A DNA stretch of 64,000 nucleotides, from contig JAYFOJ010000001.1 of NCBI GenBank assembly GCA_034932745.1, positions 69,451 through 133,450 of the forward strand. The letters run 5' to 3'. The translations under genes and the position numbers were made by a program. How positions within the stretch are numbered: position 1 is the stretch's first letter; every line of letters begins with the position of its first letter. Origin of the DNA: Erysipelotrichaceae bacterium (lineage in GTDB: Bacteria; Bacillota_I; Bacilli_A; RFN20; CAG-826). Below, one piece after another: positions 2,288 to 15,638 of this stretch. The notes beneath the pieces were generated by a model that worked only from the letters and a program-made list of their open reading frames with translations, ran no database searches and had not been told where the DNA came from.

Positions 2288-3787
2288 ATGGCCAAAAATA
2301 ATGGTGCGCTTCCGTACAATATTGATGCCGAGAAAGCTGTTCTTGGATCTGCTTTGCTCGCTCAGGAAGCCCTTTACAATGTTGTCAGTTCTCTAGAAAT
2401 CGATGATTTTTACGAAGGAAAACATCAAATTATCTACAAATCATTTATAAGTTTGATGAACCGCAAGACTCCGGTCGACGTTTTAACTGTCGCAACCGAA
2501 CTTGCAAATATGAAAGAACTTGAAAATATTGGCGGTGCTAATTATCTAAAAGAATTGACCGAATCGATGATTTCTTTTGGCAACCTTCAGTTTTATATCG
2601 ACATCGTTCTCGACCAATCCGTCATGAGAAGAATGTTATTAACTATACGAGACATCAATCGCGAATATGTTGAAGAAGATATCGAAAATCCAAACGATTT
2701 CATATTAAAAAGTGAAGTTAAATTTAAGGATTCAGTGGCGAGAAGACACATATCTTCATTTATTGATATGGAAACCGCCGCAAAGCGTGTGGAAGCGCAG
2801 TTAAACGATCAAAAGGAAATGTCTGTGTCCGATACTGACGTCATCGGCTTAAATACAGGATATCCGATGCTGAACGCCTTAACGCAAGGATTTCAAAAAG
2901 GCGAAATGACAATTATTGCCGCTCGTCCATCTGTTGGAAAAACAGCGTTAGCACTTAATTTTGCTTTCCAAGTTGCCACCAAAGAAAATGTTCCAGTTGC
3001 TATTTTTTCACTAGAAATGACCTCTGAGCTTTTAGTTAAGAGATTGATTGCCTCTGCTTCTTGCGTAAATTTAAAAAACATCAATATGGGACGTTTTTAT
3101 GGACAAGATAGGCAAAAAGTTGCGCAAGGAATAAAAGAGGTCGCAAATACAAAGATTTTTATCGATGATTCTCCAGGAATAAGATTAATGGATATCATCG
3201 CAAAAACACGCAAACTTCAATCTGCACACCCTGATTTAGGTCTTGTCATCATCGATTACCTCGGTCTTGTCCAATTAACACAAACTAATAGCCGAAATCC
3301 TGACTCAAGACAAGAGGAAGTGCGGAAGATATCACTAGCATTAAAAGCAATGGCTAAAGATTTAAAGTTACCAGTAGTTATTGTTTCGCAATTGTCCCGT
3401 GATGTTGAAAAACGAGATACAAAGAAACCAATGCTATCCGATTTGAGAGATTCTGGATCTATTGAACAAGATGCAGACGTCGTTATGCTTCTTTATAGAG
3501 AGGACTATTATTCCGACCAAAAGAAGAAAGAAATCGGTAATAAAAAGCCATCTCAATTATCTAGTAGCGATCGTTTTGAACTAGTTAGACAACAAAAAGA
3601 AAAAGAAGCCGGAGACACTCTTCCTGGCAATGCTTCATATGTCGAAGTAAACGTTGCTAAAAATAGAAACGGTGCCACTGGAAAAGTTCCACTATTCTTC
3701 TATAAAGATTTTGGCCGTTTTGATTCTCCTTCAAAAGCATGGGTAGACGCAATGAGAGAAGTCGAAGATAGCGTAGCGGCGGACTAA
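2288..3787 (+). CDS. dnaB: Replicative DNA helicase DnaB
   Basis: Walker A (ARPSVGKTALALNFA), Walker B (LVIIDYLGL), RecA-like C-terminal domain. Contains a roughly 30 aa Lys/Ser-rich insertion near the C-terminus. Confidence 0.95.
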   Translation: MAKNNGALPYNIDAEKAVLGSALLAQEALYNVVSSLEIDDFYEGKHQIIYKSFISLMNRKTPVDVLTVATELANMKELENIGGANYLKELTESMISFGNLQFYIDIVLDQSVMRRMLLTIRDINREYVEEDIENPNDFILKSEVKFKDSVARRHISSFIDMETAAKRVEAQLNDQKEMSVSDTDVIGLNTGYPMLNALTQGFQKGEMTIIAARPSVGKTALALNFAFQVATKENVPVAIFSLEMTSELLVKRLIASASCVNLKNINMGRFYGQDRQKVAQGIKEVANTKIFIDDSPGIRLMDIIAKTRKLQSAHPDLGLVIIDYLGLVQLTQTNSRNPDSRQEEVRKISLALKAMAKDLKLPVVIVSQLSRDVEKRDTKKPMLSDLRDSGSIEQDADVVMLLYREDYYSDQKKKEIGNKKPSQLSSSDRFELVRQQKEKEAGDTLPGNASYVEVNVAKNRNGATGKVPLFFYKDFGRFDSPSKAWVDAMREVEDSVAAD

Positions 3788-3788
3788 A

Positions 3789-4541
3789 ATGTATTTTAAT
3801 ATCATTGCAAGCGGTTCAAAAGGTAACGCCACTTTAGTAGTGGAAAAAGACACAATCATCCTAATCGATATGGGAGTTACTTTAACGCGTTTAGAAGCAG
3901 GCTTATCTGAAATTGGCAAGAAGGTTTCAGATATAACTGGTGCAATTATTACACACGATCATAGCGACCACACCGCAGGAATAAAGTTTTTACCTAAAAA
4001 CAAAATCTATGCTTTAGAAGGCACGATTACCGGAACGGGCTCGCATATTATAAAAATAAATGAACCATTTCTTGTAGGAGATATTACCATTACTCCAATT
4101 AAAATATCGCATGATGCAATAAATCCATGTGGTTTTGTTTTAGAATTTGGAAACGAAAAACTATCATATATCACCGATACTGGCTATGTTTTAAACGAGA
4201 CTTTGCCAATTCTTAAGAACCCGAGCTATTTAATTATTGAAAGCAACCATGATATTAAGATGTTGCTTAAAACGAATCGTCCGATGGAGCTAAAACAAAG
4301 AATTTTGAGCGATCATGGACATTTGTGCAATGAAGATTCTGCGATTGCAACATGTGGGATAATTGGCCCAAATACGAAAGAAGTCGTACTCGCACATATT
4401 TCTGAGGAGGCAAACACGCCAGAAATGGCATTAGAGGCATATCGCAAAATATTGAACTACTTTAATATCGATAGCGACTCATTCGTGTTAAAAGTTGCTT
4501 GCCAATGGAAATCTTTGCTCGGAGGGAACTATGAAAATTAA
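3789..4541 (+). CDS. MBL-fold metallo-hydrolase (YycJ/WalJ-like)
   Basis: HxHxDH motif (ITHDHSDHTAG). Size 250 aa. Confidence 0.8.
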   Translation: MYFNIIASGSKGNATLVVEKDTIILIDMGVTLTRLEAGLSEIGKKVSDITGAIITHDHSDHTAGIKFLPKNKIYALEGTITGTGSHIIKINEPFLVGDITITPIKISHDAINPCGFVLEFGNEKLSYITDTGYVLNETLPILKNPSYLIIESNHDIKMLLKTNRPMELKQRILSDHGHLCNEDSAIATCGIIGPNTKEVVLAHISEEANTPEMALEAYRKILNYFNIDSDSFVLKVACQWKSLLGGNYEN

Positions 4542-8049: not shown

Positions 8050-8445
8050 GGGGCTGAAATGGTTTCGACAGGGATGCTTGCCTTGCTTAGGCTGCAGTCG
8101 TGTGGTGACGTTATCACCAACCAAAAATAACTGACAACAGTTATATGAGCGCCAATCGCGCTCAAGTTTGCTGCGCTGCTTAATTAGCTTCCGTATATAG
8201 GAACCGACCAAAAGGCCGGACAGCACGGATTCTAGGGTTTAGCCTATTACGCCTAGAAAATCCGTCATACAAATAGGATAAGATCTAGCAGTTGACAAGT
8301 TAGCTAGGTACGAAAAATTGTTTGGCTCGCAATTCACGTTTTGTCGATATTGTCGGTGAATTGTTAAAACTCAATGTCGTCTAAACTGTAGACGCCTTTG
8401 ATGGGCCATCCTTGGACACGAGTTCAACTCTCGTCAGCTCCACCA
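8050..8445 (+). ncRNA. ssrA: tmRNA (transfer-messenger RNA, SsrA)
   Basis: 5' GGGGCTGAAATGGTTTCGACAGGG matches the canonical tmRNA 5' end. 3' end has a T-arm-like GAGTTCAACTC and CAGCTCC-ACCA pairing with the 5' GGGGCTG. An internal frame GCC AAT ... GCT GCT TAA gives a tag ending Ala-Ala-stop. Confidence 0.85.
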
Positions 8446-8456
8446 TCTTAAAAACA

Positions 8457-8480
8457 ACACCTTTATCGGGTGTTTTTTTA
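8457..8480 (+). terminator. rho-independent terminator after ssrA
   Basis: Hairpin acacc/ggtgt followed by TTTTTTT. Confidence 0.5.
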
Positions 8481-8557
8481 TTTATTGAAAACAGCGCAGA
8501 TTACGAGTGAAAACCAACAATTCATGCTTTTTTGCAGTCTTTTAAAAAGGTGGTTGT

Positions 8558-10879
8558 TTGCATTATTCATTATTAATAGTTAAAATGCTTTCGTATACTA
8601 TGAATTCAAGTAGTTTAACTATTAGTTACTTAATCGCAGTTTTTGTCTCGCTAGTATTTTTAAGTTTTTTGCTTTTGTCAAAAATTGCAAAAACTAAAAA
8701 AGATAATGCAAATCGCAATCTGAACATCGTGCTTAAGATTGCTTCTTTTGTATTAGTAGGAGTCTTTATTCTGCGCTACATGCTTTCTAGCGATTCAGTA
8801 CGTAATACCTCAAACCTTTTAAATGGAATTTTTGGTAATAATCAAGTGGCGAATGGATTTGCTTTCGTCTTGCTTCTTTTGTATTTTCCGGCACTTTTAA
8901 TCACAATTCTTAGATCCTTTATAGATATCAAAACGCTTAGACTCCTTAACAAATGGTTTGCTTTTCCTATTTCTGTTATTAGTTTTTTATTGATGTTTGT
9001 CTTAGCAAAAGGATTTGAAGATTTCTCTAATATTGATTTAATAAACTGGATGGTTCTAGTGTTGTTCGCAATAGAGATTGGCACAATGCTGTCTGTTTCA
9101 ACAATAAATTTTGTTAAAGATTTCAAAACAGATATAAGGAATAACACAAAGCAAGACATCATCTATGCTGTTTTGATTGGACTGTTGGCGCTAATATATT
9201 GCGCCCCGGCGTATTCATTGCAATATTTATTCGGATCGTACTCTTTAAAGACATATATCATTGATTTAAGTTTCTATCATCGGATATTTGTATATGTAGT
9301 TTTGTTAATACCTGTTGCGATTTATCTAATATATTGGCACCGCAGTGATGAGGAACGAAAAGTTGTAATGCTTATTCTCACGCTTGGCTGTCTAACATCG
9401 TTCTCAATCGATTTCAAAATTATCGACATGTTTACGTTCACGCCAGAGTTTAGCGTTAATGTCACCAGCTTGCCTCTGCACCTTTGCCATACGGCCATGT
9501 ATACGGTTCCACTATGTATTATTTTTAAGAAAAACAAATTCTTTAAAAACTTGTTTTATTTCACATACTTCATCAATGTTTTTGGTGCTCTATGTGCTAT
9601 TCTTGCACCAAATTATGGAGATTCAATTGCTAGTAACTTATTTGGAACTGGACTATGGGTATTCTGGATAAACCATTTCGACGCAATGATGATGCCCTTA
9701 TTAGCGGTGGCGTTTAAAATATTTGCTAGACCGAAGTTTAAATACATGATGTGGTCACTGTTTTTCTTCGCCATCTATTATGTTTGTATTTTATGGTTGG
9801 ATGTATGGTTTGCTAACTACAATCCAAATGTCGATTACTTATTCTTGAACAGTACATTTATTCCTGATAAAGCTGGCAATTTTATCGAACAATTGATAAT
9901 GGTTCCTGCTCAATTCAGTGCTGGAGGACTTACTTTCAAATTCTATCCAATCTATCAAACATTATTCTTTGTAGTTTATATTGCTGTTGCGTTCTCTATG
10001 TGGTACATCTACGAGATTGGTTTTAAAATCGCCGATTCTTATCGCGACATTTATGATCGCAAGCAAATAATCAAAAGAGAAAAACTAGAATTCTTGTCAA
10101 ACAGTAAAACTGTTAAGGGGGATGTCATCATGGAGCAAAAGCACGAGGCAGAATTGGTATTTAAAGACTTTTCTAAGAAATATGGAAATTCTGATGTGTT
10201 CTCCGCTGATCATGTTAATTTGGATGTTCACGCGGGAGAAATCTTTGGTTTCTTAGGACCAAATGGTGCCGGAAAATCAACATGCATAAAGACCGCTATT
10301 GGAATACAACCTATTACATCTGGTCAAATCATTGTTTGTGGCTACGATGTAAAGGCACAGCCTGTCGAAGCGAAAAAGCTCATTGGTTATGTTCCAGACC
10401 ACTATGCTTTATATGAAAAATTAACTGGAAGAGAATACATAAATTACATTGCAGATCTTTACGGTGTAAGCAAAGAAGACCGCAATGCAAAAATTGCAAA
10501 ATATATAGACCTTTTTGAACTATATCAAGCTTTCGATAATAGAATGCAAACGTATTCCCATGGTATGAAACAAAAAATCGCCATCATGGCGGCGCTAGTT
10601 CATAACCCAAAGATATGGATATTGGATGAGCCTCTTACGGGTCTAGATCCAAATTCGATTTATCAAGTTAAAGAATGTATGAAACAACATGCTGCAGAAG
10701 GCAACATCGTCTTTTTCTCAAGTCATATCATCGATGTAGTAGAAAAAATGTGCAACCGAATCGCTGTAATTAAAAAAGGCAAAATATTAGCCGTTAGAAA
10801 TGTTGCAGATGTCGAAAAAGAGTCGAGCCTAGAAGCATATTATATGAATTTAGTTGGTGACAACGGAGACGAAGATTGA
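8558..10879 (+). CDS. fusion protein: ~520 aa polytopic membrane domain + C-terminal ABC transporter ATP-binding domain
   Basis: Many hydrophobic helices in the N-terminal two thirds. C-terminal Walker A (GPNGAGKST), signature-like YSHGMKQK and Walker B (ILDEPLTGLD). Possible TTG start at 8558 with an AAAGGTGG SD. A strong internal SD plus ATG at 10130 is in frame. Confidence 0.75.
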   Translation: MHYSLLIVKMLSYTMNSSSLTISYLIAVFVSLVFLSFLLLSKIAKTKKDNANRNLNIVLKIASFVLVGVFILRYMLSSDSVRNTSNLLNGIFGNNQVANGFAFVLLLLYFPALLITILRSFIDIKTLRLLNKWFAFPISVISFLLMFVLAKGFEDFSNIDLINWMVLVLFAIEIGTMLSVSTINFVKDFKTDIRNNTKQDIIYAVLIGLLALIYCAPAYSLQYLFGSYSLKTYIIDLSFYHRIFVYVVLLIPVAIYLIYWHRSDEERKVVMLILTLGCLTSFSIDFKIIDMFTFTPEFSVNVTSLPLHLCHTAMYTVPLCIIFKKNKFFKNLFYFTYFINVFGALCAILAPNYGDSIASNLFGTGLWVFWINHFDAMMMPLLAVAFKIFARPKFKYMMWSLFFFAIYYVCILWLDVWFANYNPNVDYLFLNSTFIPDKAGNFIEQLIMVPAQFSAGGLTFKFYPIYQTLFFVVYIAVAFSMWYIYEIGFKIADSYRDIYDRKQIIKREKLEFLSNSKTVKGDVIMEQKHEAELVFKDFSKKYGNSDVFSADHVNLDVHAGEIFGFLGPNGAGKSTCIKTAIGIQPITSGQIIVCGYDVKAQPVEAKKLIGYVPDHYALYEKLTGREYINYIADLYGVSKEDRNAKIAKYIDLFELYQAFDNRMQTYSHGMKQKIAIMAALVHNPKIWILDEPLTGLDPNSIYQVKECMKQHAAEGNIVFFSSHIIDVVEKMCNRIAVIKKGKILAVRNVADVEKESSLEAYYMNLVGDNGDED

Positions 10880-12936
10880 TGCCGAGTAATAAAAAGCCGA
10901 AAATTAAAACTCGATTCAAAGATGGCTGGAAAGCACTTTGGATTTTAACCGCTATGCAGTTGAAGGATAGATTCTCTTTCTCATTTTCTGCTGACAAAAA
11001 ATCAGCGATTATGAAAATAGTTGCTTTCGCCCTCGGTTTTATTGTTATTACTGGCATTTGTTACGGATTTATATACCTTTTTGGTTTTTTGAGAATTTTC
11101 TCAATAAATAGTTTTGTTCCCGTTACCGCTATGGTCGTAGTGTTTACAGTAATGATGGGACTATCGATTATCACGTGCATATTTGGTCTTACTGACACTT
11201 TATATTTTTCGGAAGACAATCAGGTTTTGCTGGCTTATCCAGTTCAACCAAACATCGTTTTCCTCTCAAAACTGAATGTATATTACGTTTCCGAAATTAT
11301 TAAGAACTTCTTCTTTATTATTCCTTTATTTATTGCTTACGGAGTTTGCTATAACTTTGTTTGGTTTTATTACCCATGGATTATCTTCTGCTTCTTACTT
11401 ATTTCGCTGATACCAGTTATAGTCGGTGCACTTCTTTCGATTCCGTTTATGTGGCTTAAAGTGTTTTTGAAAAAATATCCAATTATCAATTCCGCTTTGC
11501 TTTTCTCATTATTAATTGCCTGTTTTGCATTTATCGTATTTTTGATTTTCCAATTACCAGAAAACATCAATATTACTTCAGGATGGGGTAATACTTATTG
11601 GGATATTCAAGATTTTTTAAATTCTTGGCGTCAGAATTTTTCGATAATTGATGCGATTGTCATGCTAATGGTCGGTAAAGGCGCTGATCCTTATAATTTT
11701 GCATTATTTAATCAATACACACTACCAATACTCGGAATGATGATACTAGGTTTAATTGTCTTCGGTTTAATTTCATTTCTCATCGCTAAGCCTGTGTTCT
11801 TTAAAATGGCCACCAAACCGTTCGAGTATAGTAAAAAATCAATAACCCACGATTTCAAAGTCTCTAAACAAATTTTAGAAAGTGAAATCGAAAAGATCGT
11901 ATTCAAAATAAAAGGTGAAGAAAAAATTGATGAAACAGTTTATCGGAATGTGCTGAAAAAAGTTTGGAAAGAAAACCTTTTTTATAGAGGAAAAACGACC
12001 CCGAAACGCATTTTGAGAATCTTGAATTCCTCTTCTAAGTATCAGTTTGAATTGATTGAACTCACTGATTTTGAAAATTTAAAAACTAGTGGCCCGCTTT
12101 TTGTAATCACTAAAGAATATGGTGTTAAACACTTAGTTCTTTTGAAAAATTTTAACCACTTTTCGTATCAGCTATTTGATCCGATTCACCTCGAAAAGCA
12201 AAATAGATCATTTTCAAATCCGTTTGTTGCCTCTTTATATAAAGAAGTAATGATTTCGTTAAGAACCCCAGAAATTATTATTTCAAACTTTGCTCTTTTC
12301 TCTATTGCACCAATTGCCATTCTTGCGCTTAATAGAATATTTAGTGCAATGACAACTAAATTGATGGGAAACTACATGATTATTGCTTTCAATATTTTAA
12401 TTATTCTACTAATTATGCTAACTAGTAGTATTGGTTTTGCCTCAATATACTCAAAAGAAGGTAAAACATCCTATCTATTGAAAAGCGCTCCGATTAACTA
12501 TACAAAGAACCTGTTAACCAAACTTGTTATTAACACGTTCATTATGTTCTTGTCTGCAATTGCTACAGGCATCATCTTCTCTTTAACGAATCATCAATTA
12601 TATTTTGGTTCTTGGCTCCTATTCATAAGCATATTCCTTATTTATCTTGGACATGTATTATGGTCTGCCGAACTCGATTTTATGAATCCGCAAGATAAAG
12701 TATATGCTACTACGGGTGGGAGCATTTCTAATCCAAATGAGACAAAATCGACAGTTATTGCTTTTGCGGTATCAATAATTTTTGCTCTAATCGCCTTCTT
12801 CTTGCTAAGCGAATCCAATTCCAGTGCTTTTATTAAGATTTTTATAATCGCGGCAATATTCTTTGCGGCCAGATTATATTTATTCATAACAAGAATTAAA
12901 GTATATAACACCGAAAGAGGGGAACTTGGAAGATGA
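10876..12936 (+). CDS. large ABC-2-like permease (two TM bundles separated by a ~160 aa soluble domain)
   Basis: Size 686 aa. ATGA overlap with the upstream ATPase fusion. Two blocks of about 6 TM helices each. Confidence 0.7.
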   Translation: MMPSNKKPKIKTRFKDGWKALWILTAMQLKDRFSFSFSADKKSAIMKIVAFALGFIVITGICYGFIYLFGFLRIFSINSFVPVTAMVVVFTVMMGLSIITCIFGLTDTLYFSEDNQVLLAYPVQPNIVFLSKLNVYYVSEIIKNFFFIIPLFIAYGVCYNFVWFYYPWIIFCFLLISLIPVIVGALLSIPFMWLKVFLKKYPIINSALLFSLLIACFAFIVFLIFQLPENINITSGWGNTYWDIQDFLNSWRQNFSIIDAIVMLMVGKGADPYNFALFNQYTLPILGMMILGLIVFGLISFLIAKPVFFKMATKPFEYSKKSITHDFKVSKQILESEIEKIVFKIKGEEKIDETVYRNVLKKVWKENLFYRGKTTPKRILRILNSSSKYQFELIELTDFENLKTSGPLFVITKEYGVKHLVLLKNFNHFSYQLFDPIHLEKQNRSFSNPFVASLYKEVMISLRTPEIIISNFALFSIAPIAILALNRIFSAMTTKLMGNYMIIAFNILIILLIMLTSSIGFASIYSKEGKTSYLLKSAPINYTKNLLTKLVINTFIMFLSAIATGIIFSLTNHQLYFGSWLLFISIFLIYLGHVLWSAELDFMNPQDKVYATTGGSISNPNETKSTVIAFAVSIIFALIAFFLLSESNSSAFIKIFIIAAIFFAARLYLFITRIKVYNTERGELGR

Positions 12937-13430
12937 AAAAGCCAATTATAGTGGTGCTCATTATTATTTACATTGCGTCAATTCTCTTCGTTGGGTTCTT
13001 TGGTGTCGAAGCGCATTTTAATGACGTAACTACCTATGTGAATGAGATTGTTTGTATCAATAGGGACCGCTACGACATCGACGGAGAGCAATTGGTATCC
13101 GTTAAGCAAACAAACGAGCATTTGACGACGATTAAGCTATTAGATTTAGGAAAAATATATAAAGACGAAAATAGAAGTTTCAAAATCGACTGGAAAGTTT
13201 TGCCTACTGACGCTACAAACGGAGATATTAGAGTAACTTGCGATGATGATGTGAGATTCACAATCGATAAAGAAAGTGGTTTTGGTGTAGTTCAGGGAAC
13301 AATTCATTTCCTTGGCGAAGAGGCTCCGATTGGTTCAGGAATATTGCCGCTTATTACATTACGAGCTGCCGATGGTGATGGCGCTTATACACAAGTGAAA
13401 ATTATTTATCAGAATTTAGGGGGTGTATAG
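12933..13430 (+). CDS. small N-terminally anchored extracytoplasmic protein (165 aa), third gene of the ABC-like module
   Basis: ATGA overlap with the permease gene. Single N-terminal TM (IIVVLIIIYIASILFVGFFGV). Confidence 0.6.
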   Translation: MKKPIIVVLIIIYIASILFVGFFGVEAHFNDVTTYVNEIVCINRDRYDIDGEQLVSVKQTNEHLTTIKLLDLGKIYKDENRSFKIDWKVLPTDATNGDIRVTCDDDVRFTIDKESGFGVVQGTIHFLGEEAPIGSGILPLITLRAADGDGAYTQVKIIYQNLGGV

Positions 13431-13499
13431 ACCTCAAGACTAGTATGGGTTAAAGTAAGTGTGTGCTTATTTAAATATTTATTATTAAAGGAGAATTAA

Positions 13500-15638
13500 A
13501 TGAACAAAAAAATCTTTCCGTTATTAATTTGCGCAACGATGATCATGTCGGCGTGCGACAATCCAGGTGATTCTTCATCGGATGGAGACACGTCTTCACA
13601 TTCGAGTGAAAGTGGAGACACGTCTTCAAGTACAGAATCAGAAGAACCAGATTCATCGAGCAGCGATCCAGTAGTAAAATTATCGATTTCTGGTTTTGCT
13701 CTTCCTTCCGCAATTGTTAAATTCAATGCGACCATTGCAAGTAGAGAAGATCCAAAGGATGTAGGTAAAGGAACCACCATTTATAGCGAAGACAAATTCT
13801 TTGCTACTGAAGATAATGTATACAAGGTGGGCGATGATAATCCTTTTGTTTTCTTACCAGAAGTTGAAGTTTTGGATGAAAACTTAGACCCGATAACTTT
13901 GACCTCATATCATAGTGTTGTAATAGTTGATATTCTTTTGGAAAATCAATCTTGGCACACACTTGGAGAATCCGAACTTGACAACTTTGTTTCAGTTGAT
14001 AACCAAAATTCAACATTTGATTTTAAAGATGCGGCAGTGGGTGAGACATTTAAATTACATGTTTCTCCAGATGCAAATTATTACACCGTTCCAGCTTTTA
14101 TCACTGAGAAAACATTAACCGTTACCATCGTCGATGGTTGGAACGTTAATACAGTGGCAGAACTATCGATGCTCGATAATTCAAATCCACTTTGGGATGA
14201 TTTCAAAACCGCTCATGGACTCGACAAGACATTTAAACCAAATGGTATTATTTTGCACAATGATATAAAAATAACTGCGAATGATATTCCAGCTGGTTTC
14301 TTATACACCGTAAACGATGTTGTGGAAGCTAGAATGAAAGGTTTAAACAACTATGTTGAAGATCCGACAAATGGCGTTACCAAAGCCTCGATTGTTGGTT
14401 CTTTGAAGGATTATGTTTGTGTTTATATCCACGACACACCATTTGATGGCGAATTCCTCTTCGACGGTAACTATTTTACGATTGACGCAGAAAGTTTACC
14501 TTTAGTAAGAAAATTCCGCGATGAACAAATAGATAACTGGTCAAAATCAGAAGGTTCTCATACTTCTTTGTTTGGCTTTGCGGGAGATGCCGCTGGCGAA
14601 TTAACGACTGCCGGAGATGACGGAGACGAAGCCACAGATGTTGCTATTCCAGCGCAACCAAGCACGCCACAAGGCACCGTCGTTGTGAAAAACATGAACG
14701 TAAAAGGAAATGGTAATAGGTCTAATGCCACAATCAATGCCGGCGGATTTATTTTCTCTAAATGTGGATGCAAATCCATGACATGGGAAAATGTTATTGC
14801 TAGAAAAGTTTTTACAACATTCTTCACTAGAGACAACTACGGTACTGATGAAGATGGAAATAACTACATTAGATATTGCAAAGGTTTTGACTCTTATTCT
14901 TCGATGACATATTTCTGGGCTGCTAAAAATAATTATATGGATCACACCATTTTAAAAAGATCTGGTGGAGCTTTGATTATTTGTGATGAAGTTCTATCTA
15001 TTAGCGGAACCACCGTGGTCGGTCGTCAGACATCTAATTTAGTTGCCGAATCTTGCGAATTAGAGTCATGGGTAAATGGTGGCGAATCTTGGTTCGTTTC
15101 ACATAATGCCTCAGCAAGTATGGCAAGTTTAACCGCTCTTGGACAAATCTTTAGCGGATATGCTGCCGCTCATGTAAATCAAACAAGTCACAACATCGTT
15201 AAAGATGGAAAGATTAATCTCATGGCGCTTTTGATTACAGGCGGAAATGTCTTTGACAATACTTATACACAACTAGAATCGACGATATCGATTAATAATT
15301 CCGCGACACCGCTAGATATAACCAAAATTTTCTCTGAAACTCCATATGGTTATGCTTCTAGTAGTACCGCCGCACTTTTGCTTCAATCAGCCGAGGGTGG
15401 CTATGGTATGTTTAACGGAGTTAGCGACTTCCTTTCTATCGGAAGCGATATGAATCCACGTCAATTCCAAAGTACTGCTACCGATGTGGCTGGTGGAAGC
15501 CAAGATCCTTACGTGATTGAGGCTTGGCAAAATATGCTAAAATTCTTTGATGGTCAATCGATGAACCTTTATTTGAAGCCTACTGCACAATCTAATTTCG
15601 TTGGTTGTGTACTTGGATATTTACCTGTTGCCAACTAA
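13500..15638 (+). CDS. surface lipoprotein with Ser/Asp-rich low-complexity linker
   Basis: Signal peptide with lipobox (IMSAC). SD AAAGGAG precedes the start. Residues 20-60 are an S/D/T/E-rich tract. Size 712 aa. Confidence 0.8.
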   Translation: MNKKIFPLLICATMIMSACDNPGDSSSDGDTSSHSSESGDTSSSTESEEPDSSSSDPVVKLSISGFALPSAIVKFNATIASREDPKDVGKGTTIYSEDKFFATEDNVYKVGDDNPFVFLPEVEVLDENLDPITLTSYHSVVIVDILLENQSWHTLGESELDNFVSVDNQNSTFDFKDAAVGETFKLHVSPDANYYTVPAFITEKTLTVTIVDGWNVNTVAELSMLDNSNPLWDDFKTAHGLDKTFKPNGIILHNDIKITANDIPAGFLYTVNDVVEARMKGLNNYVEDPTNGVTKASIVGSLKDYVCVYIHDTPFDGEFLFDGNYFTIDAESLPLVRKFRDEQIDNWSKSEGSHTSLFGFAGDAAGELTTAGDDGDEATDVAIPAQPSTPQGTVVVKNMNVKGNGNRSNATINAGGFIFSKCGCKSMTWENVIARKVFTTFFTRDNYGTDEDGNNYIRYCKGFDSYSSMTYFWAAKNNYMDHTILKRSGGALIICDEVLSISGTTVVGRQTSNLVAESCELESWVNGGESWFVSHNASASMASLTALGQIFSGYAAAHVNQTSHNIVKDGKINLMALLITGGNVFDNTYTQLESTISINNSATPLDITKIFSETPYGYASSSTAALLLQSAEGGYGMFNGVSDFLSIGSDMNPRQFQSTATDVAGGSQDPYVIEAWQNMLKFFDGQSMNLYLKPTAQSNFVGCVLGYLPVAN

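Follow-up and report, generated by a model that had tools for sequence, protein, structure and literature searches.

The window analysed here is a stretch of 64,000 nucleotides (nt) from an Erysipelotrichaceae bacterium (GenBank assembly GCA_034932745.1, contig JAYFOJ010000001.1, positions 69,451 to 133,450 of the forward strand), and its own numbering is used throughout. At positions 8600-10879 (+) it contains an open reading frame (ORF) in which a YwaF/TMEM164-type membrane domain is fused to an ATP-binding cassette (ABC) ATPase, as judged from the ORF list, the translation, Pfam, an AlphaFold2 model and the architecture of homologues. ATG 8585 and TTG 8558 are other possible upstream starts, the ORF being listed as 8558-10879. 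Within the gene, at the junction of its two domains, lie a Shine-Dalgarno (SD) sequence, AAGGGGGA (10115-10122, +), and an in-frame ATG (10130-10132, +) that is the predicted start of a free ATPase. This internal site, its conservation among relatives and its probable role are the subject of this report.

The membrane part of the protein (8600-10114, +) is predicted from Pfam, alignment, hydropathy and the structural model to form about 12 transmembrane (TM) helices followed by a long helix (residues 450-505). Pfam PF14808 (TMEM164/YwaF) scores 61.3 bits (cut-off 25) over residues 234-471 of the 764-residue reading, the match extending over positions 8-215 of the 217 in the profile, and NCBI labels the homologues 'YwaF family protein'. 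When the whole model was searched with Foldseek, the membrane domain found no match in the Protein Data Bank; all matches were to the ATPase. A PLHLCHTA motif (9476-9487) is invariant in the membrane core, as is a later His; H294, C296 and H359 are invariant in an alignment of 64 homologues, the His359 codon lying near 9674. TMEM164 is a lipid acyl-transferase with a Cys/His dyad (C123/H181) and is related to YwaF, and the TMEM164/YwaF proteins belong to the ATGY superfamily of membrane acyl-transferases and hydrolases (bioRxiv 10.1101/2022.07.06.498872). Besides the PF14808 match, the invariant HLC and the later His are reminiscent of that dyad. In that family a Cys, Ser or Thr nucleophile on TM2 and an invariant His on TM4 of a six-TM core would be expected. 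C296 and H359, together with H294, are candidates for an equivalent Cys/His dyad, and the membrane domain may thus be catalytically active as a lipid acyl-transferase or hydrolase. Unlike TMEM164, the protein is bacterial, has roughly double the length, some 230 residues being added at the N-terminus, and carries a fused ATPase.

The ATPase is a PF00005 (ABC_tran) domain, matched at residues 542-684 of the 764-residue reading (E=1.5e-26), with Walker A, the ABC signature region, Walker B and the H-loop; its motifs GPNGAGKS, SHGMKQK, WILDEP and SSH are invariant in the 64-sequence alignment. NCBIfam TIGR01188 (DrrA) matches at E=4e-63, under its equivalog cut-off, and there is a GldA-like match too. 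The product predicted to begin at ATG 10130 (10130-10879, +) would be a complete ABC nucleotide-binding domain of 249 residues and of the ABC-2/DrrA-like type, as indicated by Pfam, NCBIfam and Foldseek. Positions 2-4 of the full-length NCBIfam ATPase models LptB, UgpC, MalK, PhnC and GldA align to residues 522-525; because these positions fall 5-7 residues after Met516 (764-residue reading), that methionine stands where stand-alone ATPases begin. The AlphaFold2 model of the 759-residue reading has a predicted local distance difference test score (pLDDT) of 86.6. Its sole internal segment with a pLDDT below 50 is a disordered linker, residues 506-513, between the helix 450-505 and the first ATPase strand (518-527), and these residues correspond to nt 10115-10138 (+), which hold the SD and the ATG. 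Foldseek matched the short product to complete stand-alone ATPases, namely EcsA (9a6w_B, 247 residues, TM-score 0.91), TM0544 (1vpl, 238 residues) and LptB, with TM-scores of 0.89-0.91 against ATPases of 238-247 residues. In the model, the 249-residue product is a self-contained folded domain.

The SD falls on the Lys-Gly-Asp codons of the linker and is separated from ATG 10130 by a spacer of 7 nt (TGTCATC). The ATG shares the frame of the long ORF, as (10130-8558) is divisible by 3, and the translation reads through SNSKTVKGDVIMEQKHEAELVFKDFSKKYG unbroken, giving the junction peptide ...SNSKTVKGDVI-MEQKHEAELVFKDFSKKYG... and meeting its first stop at TGA 10877-10879. A preliminary description of this stretch had reported the SD, the 7-nt spacing and the in-frame ATG, had noted the lack of a stop between membrane domain and ATPase, and had taken the ATG for the point where the ATPase begins; direct reading and translation prove the first two statements exact, and the starting points of the NCBIfam ATPase models bear out the third. 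Duplex energies were calculated for pairing with the anti-SD ACCUCCUUU over positions -20 to -4 relative to a start codon. At -10.2 kcal/mol, the SD at 10115-10122 is the strongest among the 346 internal in-frame ATGs of the 45 long ORFs in the window, just two of which have an energy of -8 kcal/mol or lower, and it is better than 99% of synonymous recodings of the same peptide. The SD of ATG 10130 is a feature beyond chance in its own genome. The other of these two is ATG 4425 (4405-4427, +), preceded at 14 nt by AGGAGG, within the ORF 3777-4538 and 38 codons upstream of its end; the spacing there is seemingly too long for initiation.

The fused layout is widespread. Each of the 120 best-matching homologues, the most distant at 42% identity, has PF14808 and PF00005 in a single protein. 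When GTDB was scanned by pattern, with every species represented by one genome, 486 relatives were found; 80 of these loci were fetched (L001-L080), mostly from Clostridia/Christensenellales with some Bacilli; in every one the frame runs unbroken from the HLC motif of the membrane domain to Walker A. A further 80 metagenome loci, seeded with unfused-looking proteins, are fused except for six, four of them cut by contig ends and two unclassified (L121, L132). Altogether about 170 loci of different species were compared, with identities down to about 31%, and nearly all have a continuous fused frame. The same open frame is present in independent assemblies at 99% (P0001) and 89% (L081) identity. 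The preliminary description had allowed for a stop at this junction in orthologs, or one hidden by a sequencing error; the frame is continuous in nearly all orthologs and in the independent assemblies. That the locus consists of two genes whose stop or frameshift was lost through a sequencing or assembly error at 10100-10140 has nothing to recommend it beyond the presence of an SD and an ATG, and with the open frame recurring in those assemblies and in nearly all the other loci its probability is practically negligible.

The internal site is conserved along with the frame. In 141 fused loci, no two of them identical, the 25 codons before the ATPase were searched for the best combination of SD and start codon. 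A start codon stands at or near the junction in all 141 (128 ATG, 9 TTG and 4 GTG), and the mean SD energy is -8.4 kcal/mol, compared with -1.7 in 3332 control zones of equal size taken from these genes. Energies of -8 or lower are reached by 69% of the junctions and of -6 or lower by 83%, while only 0.8% of the control zones reach -8. In 48 of 81 loci no SD-like site elsewhere in the ORF is as strong as the one at the junction. In 56 of these 81 the strongest SD 8-mer is followed by an in-frame ATG; the corresponding counts in the two remaining frames are 9 and 0. Among the fetched loci the DNA before the junction is SD-like nearly everywhere. The preliminary description had named fused orthologs lacking the internal SD as the finding that would speak against two products; the orthologs keep both the frame and the SD.

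The start codon is retained in a linker that otherwise varies. About half of the aligned protein sequences have a Met at the same column, and many others have a second Met two residues on. Where the usual column lacks ATG, GTG (L002, L005) or TTG (L037, L073) is found at the correct spacing. One clade without the usual Met ('...LNE..NSQP..EVSLVF') has its own AGAAAGGAGAAYATHACNATG ('RKENITM') about 13 codons upstream, and this relocated site is, by its sequence and position, a case of site turnover with function retained. In the 'GRSMQEPMNPQN' subclade (L105, L114, L115, L126, L137), and also in L110, the Met is kept and the SD energy is -1.5 to -4.3 kcal/mol; internal initiation may have been weakened or lost in that subclade. 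The putative internal ribosome-binding site (RBS) is common in the family, not universal. Only one other membrane-domain–ATPase fusion was met in the fetched loci (L062), and its junction energy is -2.1.

Selection on the nucleotides was separated from selection on the peptide by recoding the seven codons upstream of the start with each gene's own codon usage in 81 loci. The observed SD energy at the junction is -8.9, compared with a synonymous expectation of -4.6, and in 37 of the 81 loci the observed value is among the lowest 5% of the randomisations for that locus. Recoding 320 control zones likewise gave -1.76 observed and -1.74 expected, with 1.6% in the tail. More than 35 residue combinations are used to spell the SD (KE 19, EE 17, GRS 17, GG 11, GR 9 and others). 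By this comparison there is selection at the nucleotide level on the junction SD. If instead the protein alone were constrained, the linker would need Gly, Arg, Glu or Lys followed by a hydrophobic Met/Val/Leu cap, and its codons would resemble GGAGG by chance. The alternation of M, V, L and I at the junction column fits this, as does the recoding expectation of the linker peptides, already at -4.6 kcal/mol against -1.7 elsewhere. The observed energies nevertheless beat that expectation by 4.3 kcal/mol on average, with a share of loci in the 5% tail far above that of the controls, the linker is predicted to be disordered and varies in sequence and length, and one clade has the motif shifted by about 13 codons, all of which makes an explanation by protein constraint very unlikely.

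The messenger RNA (mRNA) around the junction is predicted to be open. In 50-nt windows with the junction start at their centre its folding energy is -3.6 kcal/mol, compared with -7.1 for the gene body (p=2e-13), and the junction is the less structured of the two in 94% of loci. Internal SD-like sequences have been proposed to pause ribosomes, a claim that is disputed. An element of this kind could slow ribosomes past the last TM helix in favour of membrane insertion or folding, with no free ATPase being made, and its conservation and its place directly after the last TM helix and the cytoplasmic extension agree with such a role. A pause, however, needs no start codon, yet one is present in 141 of 141 loci, in frame far more often than in the other two frames and with GTG or TTG standing in where ATG is absent; the local mRNA is moreover open, as at true starts. 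We consider an elongation pause unlikely as the explanation of the element.

True split genes were found in one small lineage. A representative-library search listed unfused-looking proteins of about 476-510 residues, among which the only convincing split genes are P0122 and P0263, encoded by the metagenome contigs L169 (4001-6311) and L170 (48-2347). Each has a YwaF protein of 476-477 residues and a separate ATPase of 289-295 residues whose gene begins within the linker, the stop and start codons overlapping. The two loci are 79% identical to each other and 68% identical to the nearest fused relative. This lineage is nested among fused relatives and looks like a secondary fission. Because it encodes the ATPase as a separate gene, a free ATPase would be able to serve the system. 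Two other candidates for unfused relatives were rejected, P0162 because its end resembles adapter sequence and P0364 because it is cut by a contig end. A different arrangement occurs in L171 (2910-3290), encoding P0309, whose cluster has eight member sequences: an in-frame TAG lies at the junction, the ATPase goes on in the same frame, and no ATG, GTG or TTG follows for about 125 codons. It could be a pseudogene, an error or a case of read-through.

The preliminary description had offered two alternatives, a gene yielding both a fusion and a free ATPase, or a recent fusion of two genes that kept the downstream RBS. The second holds that two adjacent genes became fused recently, that the SD and ATG of the former intergenic region still survive, and that the fusion protein alone matters. 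The position of the ATG exactly at the ATPase N-terminus and the existence of the split layout in L169 and L170 are what this history would leave behind. It is hard to reconcile with a fusion that essentially every relative shares, even at about 31-40% identity, with a -8 kcal/mol SD and a synonymous bias maintained through more than 35 peptide contexts and at a relocated site, or with a split lineage that, nested as it is, resembles a secondary fission. A relic RBS is highly improbable, and the proposal of a recent fusion falls with it, the gene being fused in nearly all of the loci. The first alternative stands, supported by the conserved SD and start codon, synonymous selection, site turnover, open mRNA and the position of the site in a disordered linker.

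The internal start compares favourably with the start of the gene itself. In the window no SD precedes the long ORF at its 5' end (+1.0 for ATG 8585 and +0.6 for ATG 8600), and the closest relatives of the window likewise lack one. Over 74 loci with an intact 5' end, the best candidate SD averages -6.2 at the 5' start and -6.8 at the start of the downstream permease gene; the internal site averages -8.9. Since the internal SD is stronger than that at the 5' end, synthesis of the free ATPase is predicted to be no less efficient than that of the fusion.

We conclude that internal initiation probably does take place at the junction and gives a free ATPase besides the fusion. Ribosomes starting at the 5' end would make a full-length protein of about 86 kDa, comprising the polytopic YwaF/TMEM164-type domain, probably a Cys/His enzyme of the lipid acyl-transferase or hydrolase kind, followed by the long helix, the short disordered linker and the ABC ATPase. 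Other ribosomes would bind the internal SD AAGGGGGA and start at ATG 10130, producing a free ATPase of 249 residues and about 28 kDa with the predicted N-terminus (f)MEQKHEAELVFK. In the clade of the window, where the 5' start has no SD, the fusion would be expected to be no more abundant than the free ATPase.

The operon provides a possible reason for a second ATPase product. The TGA of the fusion gene (10877-10879) overlaps the ATG of the next gene (10879-10881) as TGATG, with GGAGA 9 nt upstream; judged by its sequence, this is a classic layout for translational coupling. The next gene (10879-12936, +) encodes a permease of 685 residues and the 12TM_1/ABC_tran_2 type, as recognised from Pfam PF16949, hydropathy and reading of the sequence. 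Orthologous permeases, of about 690-720 residues across the conserved operon, match PF09847 and PF16949. Hydropathy divides the permease into six TM helices, a soluble insert of about 160 residues and six more TM helices. As a rule the permease of an ABC transporter should bind two ATPase domains; given this rule and its two 6-TM halves, the 12-TM permease should do so too. No second ATPase gene was found in the conserved operon, in agreement with the statement of the preliminary description that a single nucleotide-binding domain is encoded for the whole module; its suggestion that a free copy would ease dimerisation is plausible.

Downstream of the permease, a protein of 165 residues with one N-terminal TM anchor (12933-13430, +) is identified by hydropathy and conserved gene order, a gene of 165-178 codons following the permease in L081-L087 as well. 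The last conserved gene of the cluster among close relatives (13500-15638, +) encodes a predicted lipoprotein of 712 residues, with a signal ending in IMSAC and a Ser/Asp-rich spacer after it. Neither protein (12933-15638) has a Pfam match. Proteins of 692-704 residues occupy the lipoprotein position in L082 and L083, and in other clades a Big_2 protein of about 1300 residues replaces it.

With no further ATPase gene in the operon and all 12 TM helices of the permease on one polypeptide, supplying a second ATPase subunit is the most likely purpose of the internal start. The working complex would then combine one permease with two ATPases, one tethered to the enzyme and the other free. Another possibility is that internal initiation sets the ratio of free to tethered ATPase. 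A model for the whole family of Firmicute ABC systems, in which one ATPase tethered to a TMEM164-like Cys/His lipid acyl-transferase domain and one free ATPase sit asymmetrically on a single 12-TM pseudo-dimeric permease and ATP hydrolysis is coupled to a lipid step, is put forward tentatively, as possible though doubtful; such a coupled lipid-modifying or lipid-handling step would serve the co-encoded surface lipoprotein or Big_2 proteins.

Several observations weigh against two products and the purpose proposed for them. The purine-rich codons of the hydrophilic linker supply part of its SD-likeness (a synonymous expectation of -4.6, compared with -1.7 in the controls), and the same purine-rich composition may account in part for the open mRNA. 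The loci are related by descent, so that p-values such as that separating the junction from the control SD energies (Mann-Whitney p=1e-83) overstate their independence. About 17% of loci, including the whole 'GRSMQEPMNPQN' subclade, have a weak SD (above -6). The claim of two products comes from comparing sequences, and the short protein is a predicted one. The stoichiometric rationale is a hypothesis built on gene content and hydropathy, and two fusion proteins could dimerise with each other, in which case no free ATPase would be needed.

In-frame internal initiation is accepted, if sparsely documented, in bacteria, with well-supported cases numbering in dozens. The junction site very probably belongs to this known class, in which an internal start gives a C-terminal subunit. 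In CRISPR-Cas systems of types I-B, I-C and I-D, the small subunit Cas11 arises by internal in-frame translation within cas8 or cas10d (bioRxiv 10.1101/2020.04.18.045682). There, as is proposed here, an SD and a start codon inside a larger ORF give the C-terminal domain as a separate subunit, which in the case of Cas11 assembles with the full-length protein; in both, too, it was the sequence that first revealed the internal site, and the site is widespread in the family. The two cases differ in protein family and in cellular machine, the long form here is a polytopic membrane protein, and the short product of Cas11 and the requirement for it were shown by experiment, whereas the present case is known from sequence. 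The SpaO/SsaQ (SctQ) proteins of the type III secretion sorting platform also occur as long and short proteoforms (PMC13515050; bioRxiv 10.1101/648071). They resemble the case proposed here in their in-frame internal initiation and in the pairing of the C-terminal domain with the same domain of the full-length protein, and a single gene fixes the stoichiometry of the complex; it has been measured there as 2:1, whereas the stoichiometry here is hypothesised, and SpaO/SsaQ are soluble SPOA-domain proteins while the domain in question here is an ABC ATPase. Internal initiation has further been mapped genome-wide in E. coli (bioRxiv 10.1101/520783).

The DrrAB and EcsAB exporters of the ABC-2 type are the nearest parallel on the transporter side. 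Shared with them are a standard ABC-2/DrrA-like ATPase, whose best structural match is EcsA, and a coupled permease gene next to it, and the split loci L169 and L170 have the ordinary separate-ATPase layout of such exporters. Unlike in DrrAB and EcsAB, the ATPase is normally fused behind a YwaF/TMEM164-type domain of about 510 residues, and the permease, of the uncharacterised 12TM_1/ABC_tran_2 type, has its 12 TM helices in one chain. Literature searches on YwaF, the Pfam accessions and internal initiation in ABC transporters returned no description of the YwaF–ABC family or of the site, and no ABC-transporter case of in-frame internal initiation was found in the searchable literature. If the asymmetric model is true, no earlier ABC transporter would be known to have its ATPase dimer set by alternative translation initiation. 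The signal is family-wide and has outlived changes of the peptide, and with the natural split variants as an evolutionary control it would offer a clean test case for subunit stoichiometry hard-wired by translation. Annotation is affected as well: hundreds of genomes name the gene 'YwaF family protein' or 'ATP-binding cassette domain-containing protein' and list no second product. The operon itself, consisting of the TMEM164-like enzyme–ATPase fusion, the 12-TM permease, the small anchored protein and the large surface protein, is unstudied and common in gut Clostridia and Bacilli.

The leader of the fusion gene appears to be very short. A promoter-like TTGCAT-17-TAAAAT (8557-8586, +) was picked up by a consensus scan in which promoter-like matches were no commoner than in shuffled sequence. 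It runs into ATG 8585, and 13 nt lie between its end and ATG 8600, a geometry shared by L081, L083 and L084, which suggests that the full-length ORF is read from ATG 8600 on a very short leader lacking an SD. If TTG 8558 is taken as the start, AAAGGTGG lies just 4 nt upstream. A possible internal promoter, GCGACA-16-AATAAT (10044-10071), was given no weight, the region having 12 such matches compared with 11.7 in shuffled sequence. Directly upstream of the fusion gene is a transfer-messenger RNA (tmRNA) gene (8050-8474, +) with the tag peptide DNSYMSANRAQVCCAA, followed by a terminator-like hairpin at 8456-8474.

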